From IMG/VR virus record IMGVR_UViG_2713897042_000013, positions 1-25,270 of that record: 25,270 nt of DNA. One strand, given 5' to 3'. The position numbers and the translations under genes are program-made. This DNA comes from a virus (lineage: Duplodnaviria > Heunggongvirae > Uroviricota > Caudoviricetes). Under the pieces are notes generated by a model. It saw only the letters and a program-made list of their open reading frames with translations. It was not told where the DNA came from and made no database searches. Within the stretch, counting starts at the first letter, position 1. Each line of letters begins with the position of its first letter. Positions 3,463 to 4,188 of the stretch are shown piece after piece.

Positions 3463-3762
3463 TTACCTTTCCCGATAGGTATATAGTTCATCATGTGCAA
3501 CCTTGCGATTGCGATGTATTCCCATTTCTTTCTCTACGCGTATTGCTGCATTGCGTAATGTTCTTGAGGTCGCGACTTCTCTTGAACTTACATTTTTTAA
3601 TGTAGCCGATTTAATGCAACGTTGAATTTGCCTCTGGATATACATCCGCTGGTCTGTCTGAGTCTCCTGACGATAATCCATCAGCACATCTTGCCAGCGA
3701 GCCGCAGCTCTGCGCCAAAGCCCTTTATTTTCAAGTTCTTCAGCTTTTTTATCTTTAACCAT
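3463..3762 (-). CDS. Possible PerC/Pch-family transcriptional activator-like protein (99 aa)
   Basis: ATG at 3762 preceded by AGGAG (the track's GTG start at 3777 is less likely). Begins MVKDKKAEELENKGLWRRAAARW…, resembling the recalled PerC-family N-terminal motif. Unverified. Confidence 0.5.
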   Translation of the reverse strand: MVKDKKAEELENKGLWRRAAARWQDVLMDYRQETQTDQRMYIQRQIQRCIKSATLKNVSSREVATSRTLRNAAIRVEKEMGIHRNRKVAHDELYTYRER

Positions 3763-3788
3763 ACAGTCTCCTATCACACTAAATATTA

Positions 3789-3824
3789 AATAATAACTAT
3801 CAGGTTTATCAGATAGTTATTATT
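3789..3824. promoter_or_regulatory. Perfect 13-bp inverted repeat AATAATAACTATC-N10-GATAGTTATTATT just upstream of the PerC-like gene; candidate operator
   Basis: Read directly. No adjacent T-run on either strand, so unlikely to be a terminator. Confidence 0.45.
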
Positions 3825-4188
3825 ACAGTTAAGTATAGGGGCGGTAATAATAACCTAAGATGGTGGTGAAATTCAAGCCAGATGCCGTTATGCAACTCAA
3901 CAGAAATAAGCTGTTGCTTTTTATCTCACTATTCATTTGTCTCATTTCCAGCTATACTCATTGTTCACACAACACAAAAGGCATAGAAATGACAGTGTAT
4001 GGCATATCAGAAAACAGTATTGTTCACTTACGTGAAAAAAATGGATAATGGCTTGTGTTGCACATTATTAAAAATGGCGACATTATATATCACCTCAAAA
4101 ATACAGACAAAGAAATGAACGTCACACTTCAGGATATTATCCCCAATAAATAATCAAATGAGCGTGGCGCACGATGCCCCGCGCTATT

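Follow-up and report, generated by a model that had tools for sequence, protein, structure and literature searches.

A rare, divergent PerC-family gene on a mobile phage cassette with a three-part inverted repeat

The window analyzed here, a stretch of 25,270 nucleotides of viral DNA, carries a gene whose product belongs to the PerC family and which, judged from sequence comparison, is a distant, rare and divergent member of it. Proteins of the PerC and Pch type, encoded by phages or plasmids, act in EPEC and EHEC as switches that relieve virulence islands of silencing by H-NS. The locus adds to this family a rare and divergent clade that travels as a cassette of ~700 bp between lambda-like prophages and P1-like phage-plasmids, and the cassette carries an unusually clean symmetric control element. 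We lean, with modest confidence, towards the reading that this is a mobile PerC-family cargo cassette that has its own promoter, that uses an array of half-sites as a DNA-level operator, and that encodes a modulator of H-NS silencing.

The PerC-like gene, its cassette and its neighbourhood

At its start the window matches E. coli ybhC with 99.5% identity; lambda-type int and xis follow, and further on come ERF, N, a CI-like repressor, CII, O, P, NinG, Q and the terminase TerL; it is a lambdoid prophage at att-lambda (ybhC) in E. coli. The perC-like gene lies beside xis, between xis and the early-left genes, and is co-oriented with the early-left operon (N and erf through to xis and int). The features of the gene and its surroundings are these:

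3019-4258, no strand assigned: variable cargo segment of 1.24 kb, defined by comparison with the prophage of strain A26 at the same att site
3216-3909, minus strand: core mobile cassette, ~700 bp, 93.8% identity between the lambdoid copies and those of P1-like phage-plasmids
3216-3462, minus strand: AT-rich conserved trailer of 247 bp, with the cassette boundary at 3216
3463-3762, minus strand: perC-like CDS, 99 aa plus stop, from the ORF list and translation
3768-3771, minus strand: Shine-Dalgarno sequence GGAG, 5 nt before the ATG, read from the sequence
3860-4153, plus strand: divergent small-protein gene with a hydrophobic N-terminal signal-like segment and an in-frame TAA at 4046-4048
3910-4147, no strand assigned: 238 bp found only in lambdoid copies and missing from P1-like copies; the body of the divergent gene
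4148-4188, minus strand: following the upstream operon, a degenerate hairpin whose tail is U-rich

Translation of the minus-strand ORF 3463-3762 gives MVKDKKAEELENKGLWRRAAARW..., and the 99-aa protein begins MVKDKKAEELENKGLWRRAAARWQDVL...; the GGAG Shine-Dalgarno sequence is kept in every copy compared. A GTG-initiated form of 104 aa appears in some NCBI records and is unlikely, because the homologues all begin M[VI]xDKKAE. The preliminary description had proposed the PerC family from this N-terminus and had named PF06069 as the profile to search. The ORF is real and the proposed family is correct: the 99-aa protein scores 55.5 bits with the Pfam PerC model (PF06069), whose gathering score is 22.6 (E 7.2e-15), the match aligning residues 1-88 with model positions 1-83 of 90, and it is the protein's sole Pfam match. 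The PHROG family phrog_994 also matches (E 4.7e-29), NCBIfam and PADLOC models give no match to the protein, and NCBI names proteins that are 92-98% identical to it 'PerC family transcriptional regulator'.

The family signature D-x-x-A-E-x-L-E-x-x-G-[LF]-[WY]-R-R-A-A-x-R-W is present N-terminally, together with a conserved Cys near residue 49. When the protein is aligned with PerC (pMAR2) and PchA (Sakai), residues D4, A7, L10, E11, G14, R17 and R18 are invariant, as are A19, A20, R22, W23, R39, C49 and G81. Its length lies within the ~90-105 aa of PerC-family proteins, and its occurrence in a lambdoid prophage and in P1-like phage-plasmids agrees with the family's place on Enterobacterales plasmids, prophages and PICIs. 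A profile search for the family returned 288 members across Enterobacterales, and the homologues all carry PF06069; the plasmid matches are mostly from Escherichia (161 of 171). The window protein belongs to a distinct clade, marked by the signatures GLWRRAAARWQ and, C-terminally, EKEMGIxRDRK. The PerC-family assignment is secure.

The surrounding segment is replaced as a block in a prophage that is ~99% identical elsewhere. In strain A26 the prophage agrees with the window to 99% as far as 3018 and to 96% from 4259 onwards, and a DUF4222 gene replaces 3019-4258; because A26 carries this gene between the same flanks, 3019-4258 is a variable cargo slot. Within it, the core cassette is made up of the control region, the gene and the 247-bp trailer, the last of which holds a 75-bp doc-like fragment (3248-3322) with a 78.7% match to the doc region of L002. 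The cassette recurs on ~91-kb contigs with hot, humD, phd/doc and dUTPase as neighbours, i.e. on P1-like phage-plasmids, and also in other lambdoid prophages, one of them next to torS, and in IMG/VR copies; as it is present in both backgrounds, it moves as a unit between unrelated phages. Draft assemblies with the cassette include GCA_048154545.1, GCA_002001595.1 and GCA_047654415.1. By Megablast the cassette is absent from 5426 complete E. coli genomes, a set that contains the sequenced references for EHEC and EPEC, and from 50,697 phage records; among distant DNA matches the best reaches about 70% identity.

That the cassette is mobile, moron-like cargo is largely supported by these comparisons. 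The preliminary description had called the gene a moron, and this holds insofar as the gene is replaced between the same flanks in the A26 slot, the cassette is mobile and its GC content is distinct and low; as for transcription signals of its own, the 9/12 promoter match occurs at chance frequency, the operator and promoter parts are candidates, and neither an intrinsic minus-strand terminator nor a stable hairpin was detected downstream of the gene. With no terminator closing the cassette, co-transcription with the downstream 62-aa and 55-aa ORFs and with xis/int may occur.

The long upstream stretch had been described as AT-rich and non-coding. It is AT-rich, with a GC content of 0.32-0.40 over 3150-4200 versus 0.44-0.54 in the flanks, but it is not simply non-coding, since part of it is the decayed divergent gene. 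The NCBI start of that gene is an ATG equivalent to 3890, and its ORF is intact in the related locus L017, where it encodes 101 aa with a hydrophobic, signal-like N-terminus. The protein has only 5 homologues in 5.8 billion proteins and falls into no Pfam family. The additional 238 bp of the lambdoid copies could pass for an insertion; because they are the body of the divergent gene, the difference is read as a deletion in the P1-like lineage. At the equivalent of 4148-4188, where the window has the degenerate hairpin, the P1-like copies have a clean GCGGGG...CCCCGC terminator. With the decayed divergent ORF upstream, the repeat array described below sits in a divergent intergenic region of 97-127 bp.

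The inverted-repeat array and its candidate promoters

The region between the two divergent genes contains the following elements:

3789-3801, no strand assigned: palindrome arm C, AATAATAACTATC, from the repeat search, the same in all 9 related copies
3812-3824, no strand assigned: palindrome arm B, GATAGTTATTATT, which with its flank (3816-3826) also pairs with site A
3844-3854, no strand assigned: third half-site A, GTAATAATAAC, which lies across the -10 hexamers of the two divergent promoter candidates
3847-3876, minus strand: promoter candidate P1, TTGAAT (3876-3871), 18 nt, TATTAT (3852-3847), a 9/12 consensus match
3832-3837, minus strand: alternative candidate -10 hexamer TATACT with no good -35, read from the sequence

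Arms B and C are 13 bp long, 100% complementary and separated by a 10-nt spacer, and they lie 27 bp upstream of the perC-like ATG; the palindrome is exactly as it had been described, in position as in complementarity. The third half-site (3844-3854) is absent from that description: site A forms with 3816-3826 a perfect 11-bp inverted repeat at 17-nt spacing. The three half-sites are thus ordered -> <- -> within 66 bp and have the consensus AATAATAAC. An opposed pair of them can be written as AATAATAAC-N-GTTATTATT.

No perfect inverted repeat in the 25-kb window is longer than the 13-bp one, and no other reaches 13 bp (loop 3-20). When the local AT-rich region (1 kb) was simulated 1500 times with a first-order Markov model, no run gave a repeat of at least 13 bp (0/1500); one of at least 12 bp arose in 0.07% of the runs and one of at least 11 bp in 0.6%. 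The array is a non-random, genuine symmetric element; its role as an operator is putative.

The palindrome and the gene go together: in IMG/VR, the 5 contigs with the palindrome are the same 5 contigs that have the gene. Arms B and C are unchanged in 9/9 related copies, the sole difference being one base of the spacer, while the outermost base of site A varies in the P1-like copies and the spacing between A and B is off by 1 bp in L017. Upstream of four more distant homologues (L011, L012, L013 and L014; 57-69% identity) the palindrome is absent and a different AT-rich sequence is found; a scan of one genome per species and a scan of JGI metagenomes added no intermediate relatives. Between lambdoid and P1-like copies the control region from the Shine-Dalgarno sequence to site A (3763-3855, 93 bp) differs by 3.2%, compared with 5.3% for the CDS (7 synonymous and 8 non-synonymous codon changes), 6.9% for the trailer and 14.8% just upstream. 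This lower divergence of the control region is suggestive and not significant, and the count of changes in the arms themselves, 0 in 26 bp versus about 1.5 expected, is not statistically compelling; the copies show no compensatory change by which a constraint on the DNA could be told from one on the RNA.

Transcription from promoter candidate P1 is predicted to start near 3840, which would put the palindrome B-C inside the mRNA, between about +15 and +50. A divergent candidate on the plus strand reads ATTACA-18-AATAAT (3822-3851). Consensus matches in this region number 5 versus 4.7 expected by chance, and both promoters are to be read as candidates in that light. From the alternative hexamer TATACT the predicted start is at 3826-3824, the first base of the hairpin arm.

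Two further roles for the array were considered and set aside. The half-site motif was found nowhere else in the 25-kb window, the cI-cro and cI/cII regions included, and we therefore rejected an operator for a phage (immunity) repressor. Leader-peptide attenuation, with A:B and B:C as alternative pairings, was rejected as unlikely: the candidate is a TTG-started frame (...GYYYRPYT*) across site A that has no Shine-Dalgarno sequence and whose TTG coincides with the -35 candidate, TAG closes the frame in the P1-like copies, and the peptide is not conserved between copies (4/5 substitutions are non-synonymous).

Readings of the array and of the protein

In the reading that we favour, the perC-like gene would be transcribed in the lysogen from its own sigma-70 promoter in the 97-127-bp divergent intergenic region; after induction it would also be read through from PL, as expected from its co-orientation with the N-dependent early-left operon. 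The half-site array would serve as an operator at the DNA level, with site A over both -10 hexamers and B-C just downstream of the start. We favour a DNA-level operator because there are three half-sites and not two, and because the array is kept in two phage backgrounds. Since these backgrounds are unrelated and the P1-like copies encode nothing else, the factor that binds it should be the PerC-like protein itself or else a core protein of the host.

The PerC-like protein itself is 12 kDa and strongly basic (pI 10.1). Its AF2 model is all-helical, with five helices (pLDDT 82.6), and resembles a TPR/MIT-like protein-interaction fold or a TPR/ANR-like one; no helix-turn-helix motif is recognisable in it. 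Among viral proteins the nearest Foldseek models are small 'transcriptional regulator' proteins. On this analysis the basic, all-helical protein is most likely a modulator of H-NS-type silencing: it would bind very AT-rich, H-NS-covered DNA and/or H-NS-type proteins in a PchA-like manner and would remodel silencing complexes on horizontally acquired genes. The published precedent is PchA, which binds the most AT-rich parts of H-NS regions, displaces H-NS and lowers its occupancy at LEE1 (PMC4764244).

A bolder version, in which the three-half-site array is the specific recognition site of the PerC-like protein and a dimer or oligomer of it autoregulates the divergent promoters, seems to us quite improbable, and the idea of autoregulation is weakened by a predicted fold that matches no known DNA-binding fold. 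We know of no PerC/Pch protein for which a specific recognition sequence has been described, and of no DNA-binding domain that the PerC/Pch fold resembles. If the array were the protein's own site, a recognition sequence would for the first time be defined in the PerC/Pch family, a motif search could find host targets, and the site would be a useful experimental handle; otherwise, the protein would be an ordinary, already-annotated accessory regulator.

The palindrome might instead act as RNA, forming an AU-rich stem-loop of 13 bp in the perC-like 5' UTR, a rival reading that we take seriously and consider rather unlikely. It would be either a 5'-terminal stabiliser, with transcription from the TATACT -10 starting at 3826-3824, or part of a longer imperfect hairpin in which CCUAU pairs with AUAGG of the Shine-Dalgarno region and makes translation temperature- or RNase III-sensitive. 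The predicted energies are in keeping with such a structure: the hairpin alone reaches -12.3 kcal/mol (z = -7.0; 0/200 shuffles as good) and the 103-nt leader -19.9 kcal/mol (z = -2.84; 1/200 shuffles as good), with the base of the stem covering part of the Shine-Dalgarno sequence. The single difference between copies also falls in the loop, and 6 nt separate the end of TATACT from the start of the arm. A hairpin requires two arms, yet here a third perfect copy of 11 nt stands upstream, over the promoter candidates; moreover, no G-U pairs or compensatory changes occur in the arms among the copies compared, TATACT has no usable -35, the minimum-free-energy structure has an ensemble frequency of 1.4%, and the search of known RNA families yielded no Rfam family, with nothing near a gathering score. 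Binding of the array by a host global factor (IHF, Fur or H-NS), the PerC-like protein having no role, would couple the cassette to the physiology of its host, and we hold it to be doubtful too. In its 25 kb the window has just 4 matches to the IHF core consensus WATCARNNNNTTR, one inside the palindrome (3807-3819) and one on the att side (1371-1383), where the sequence matches the lambda H' IHF site. In all P1-like copies, however, the core in the palindrome is broken (TATCAG to TAACAG) while the arms are intact, and an IHF site there was demoted for this reason. Each arm with its flank agrees at 11/14 positions with the Fur 7-1-7 consensus, but this likeness comes largely from the AT-rich (A/T)ATAAT repeats, and an arrangement of F-F, gap, R-R is not the Fur architecture. 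The region's 32-36% GC is typical of H-NS targets (PMC4764244), but H-NS does not need perfect 13-bp symmetry.

For the protein, the alternatives to a modulator of H-NS-type silencing concern its partners and the direction of its effect. It could be an ANR-like anti-activator or repressor that dampens its targets through protein contacts with an AraC/XylS regulator or H-NS, in the way that ANR proteins act on H-NS and AraC regulators via protein-protein contact (PMC5570504, PMC10148876); we see this as a minority possibility. Consistent with it are the TPR/MIT-like interaction fold, two models named 'ANR family transcriptional regulator' among the viral structural neighbours (TM 0.46-0.72 over 53-54 columns), one family match (P0046) that NCBI names ANR family, and the PerC-family protein EcCIMP1_025, which represses LEE1 and for which ANR-like behaviour was suggested by its authors (PMC11773190). 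The Foldseek E values of the ANR-named models, though, are not significant (2.7-3.9), no AraC-family gene adjoins the cassette, and the protein is larger than typical ANRs and carries the conserved C-terminal EKEMGIxRDRK segment. The preliminary description had pointed the other way, to a PerC/Pch-type regulator that could act on host virulence genes; in its full form, this reading makes the protein an activator of ler/LEE1 with which the prophage would convert a LEE-positive host. PF06069 membership and the N-terminal motif shared with PerC and PchA speak for such a role, and PerC and PchA/B/C do activate LEE1 (PMC4764244, PMC6265319). The similarity, however, is too low for the claim to be upheld, at just 25% identity to PerC and 28-32% to PchA. 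Among family members of comparable divergence, PchD/E and the PICI copies moreover leave LEE1 unaffected (PMC6265319, PMC6092414) and EcCIMP1_025 represses it (PMC11773190), and because published members thus activate, ignore or repress LEE1, the role of virulence activator is not transferable. Nor does anything in the window indicate a pathogenic or LEE-positive host: it contains no LEE or other pathotype marker, the isolates that match its int-xis-ybhC part most closely are ordinary ones of human, animal and urinary origin, and the 5426 complete genomes that lack the cassette include the EHEC and EPEC references. We regard activation of LEE1 and conversion of a LEE-positive host as very unlikely.

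Comparison with PerC, Pch and other mobile genes

The best-studied counterparts are PchA, PchB and PchC of EHEC O157:H7 (group 1; Sakai ECs1091 etc.), which belong to the same Pfam family. PchA is of similar size and charge (104 aa vs 99 here; pI 10.3 vs 10.1), shares the N-terminal motif A-E-x-L-E-x-K-G-L-[WY]-R-R-A-A-x-R-W, and is likewise encoded by a stand-alone AT-rich unit of a lambdoid prophage with a long AT-rich upstream region. Its identity to the window protein is only 28% globally and 32% over 82 aa, and the similarity to PerC and PchA is concentrated in the N-terminal 27-30 residues of the window protein; the window protein, which is 28-32% identical, differs in its C-terminal third and lacks the ...NTSGNARSKKC tail, falls outside Pch group 1. 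The pchA gene lies in the late/lysis region of Sp4, on the strand opposite to its neighbours, whereas the perC-like gene adjoins xis, and no palindrome comparable to that of the perC-like gene is seen by eye upstream of pchA. Displacement of H-NS at LEE1 is a property demonstrated for Pch only (PMC4764244).

PerC (BfpW) of EPEC pEAF/pMAR2, the founder of the family, is alike in the N-terminal motif, with 52% identity over 27 aa, and differs over the whole length, with 25% identity (PerC of E2348/69). On its plasmid, perC comes third in the perABC operon, after the gene for an AraC-type regulator, whereas the perC-like gene is phage cargo with its own putative control region. The PICI genes (EcCIMP1_025 and the EcCICFT073 and EcCIEDL933 copies) and PchD/PchE resemble it, by their published descriptions, as atypical PerC-family genes on mobile elements (PMC11773190, PMC6092414, PMC6265319), and differ in lying on PICIs or at other prophage positions.

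Nearest to the protein's own clade is a sister clade (proteins P0008, P0009 and P0003; loci L011, L014 and L033), 59-67% identical, also 99 aa long and bearing both the GLWRRAAARWQ and the EKEMGIxRDRK signatures. Its genes differ in their setting: large plasmids or unplaced contigs carry them, the sequence upstream is AT-rich and without the window palindrome, and a MarR-family regulator gene follows them; in L011 the same strand also bears, further downstream, a gene for an inverse-autotransporter adhesin.

Set against phage morons in the sense of Hendrix and Juhala (lambda bor and lom, or the pch genes of the Sp prophages), the cassette differs in that no terminator was detected, in that the slot is filled by DUF4222 in A26, and in that the cassette originally had a second, divergent gene. 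It shares with them an extra gene of low GC content in a variable slot, a candidate promoter of its own, and an occurrence common to unrelated phages.

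The divergent partner of the perC-like gene and its loss from P1-like copies

Across the control region from the perC-like gene lies a divergently oriented gene, which we located in the window and in L017, a related copy of the locus:

3860-4153, + strand, divergent partner gene in the window
L017 2597-2902, - strand, divergent partner gene in the L017 copy

The product, of about 91-101 aa with a signal-like N-terminus (MQLNRNKLLLFISLFICLIS...), is an orphan; it has no Pfam family and 5 homologues among 5.8 billion proteins. An in-frame TAA (4046-4048) truncates the gene in the window and in the related copies L015, L016 and L018, and L017 is the sole copy in which it is intact. 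In the copies that P1-like phage-plasmids carry (L002-L009 and L019), 238 bp of the cassette locus corresponding to window 3910-4147 are absent; this difference is a deletion in the P1-like copies that takes out the divergent partner gene and puts the cassette against a clean GCGGGG...CCCCGC terminator. A small reading frame near the cassette is kept in these same copies:

4189-4278, - strand, hydrophobic ORF of 29 codons (MSWPEAFATVGVAIAVALVVFSICRWGDK)

Its ATG overlaps the stop codon (ATGA) of the dATP/dGTP-pyrophosphohydrolase/DUF551 gene, and its product may be a small membrane peptide.

Within the cassette trailer, 75 bp (window 3248-3322) share 78.7% identity, in matching relative orientation, with sequence from the 3' part of the region around doc (Fic) in P1-like contigs (L002 9639-9712); the stretch may be left over from an earlier position downstream of phd-doc.

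Neighbours of related PerC genes

Downstream of the perC-like gene and on its strand, the sister-clade loci (59-67% identical; L011 1-4309 and L014 734-1717) encode a MarR-family regulator, and L011 has a large inverse-autotransporter (intimin/invasin-type) gene there as well; these neighbours hint at a link between the wider clade and adhesin control. A further PerC subclade, with 55-58% identity (L012 3971-5102, L013 3941-4968 and L020 2177-3309), occurs on plasmids, within a chromosomal island and in the P1-like phage phi456, and several of its PerC copies are truncated (67-90 aa). The adjacent opposite-strand gene encodes an HTH-domain protein in L013 and a hypothetical protein in L012 and L020, with an HTH regulator one gene further on in L012.

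Other prophage genes and the att region

Two further features lie elsewhere in the prophage:

8100-8783, - strand, Nmad5 protein gene (227 aa; full-length domain match, E 3e-70)
9501-11005, - strand, gene pair directly downstream of the CI-like repressor gene

In the early-left operon, the Nmad5 gene (nucleotide modification associated domain 5) comes straight after the one for the N antiterminator. The gene pair encodes a 192-aa DUF6932 protein, with a weak PADLOC match to the candidate defence family PDC-M63A (E 2e-10), and a 309-aa protein with no family; it occupies the place of rexAB in lambda and is possibly a prophage-encoded defence pair.

Between ybhC and int is a perfect 12-bp inverted repeat (1330-1341/1354-1365), the second-longest in the window. 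It adjoins a sequence that fits the IHF core consensus exactly, TATCAATTTGTTG (1371-1383), and that presumably matches the H' site of lambda attP.
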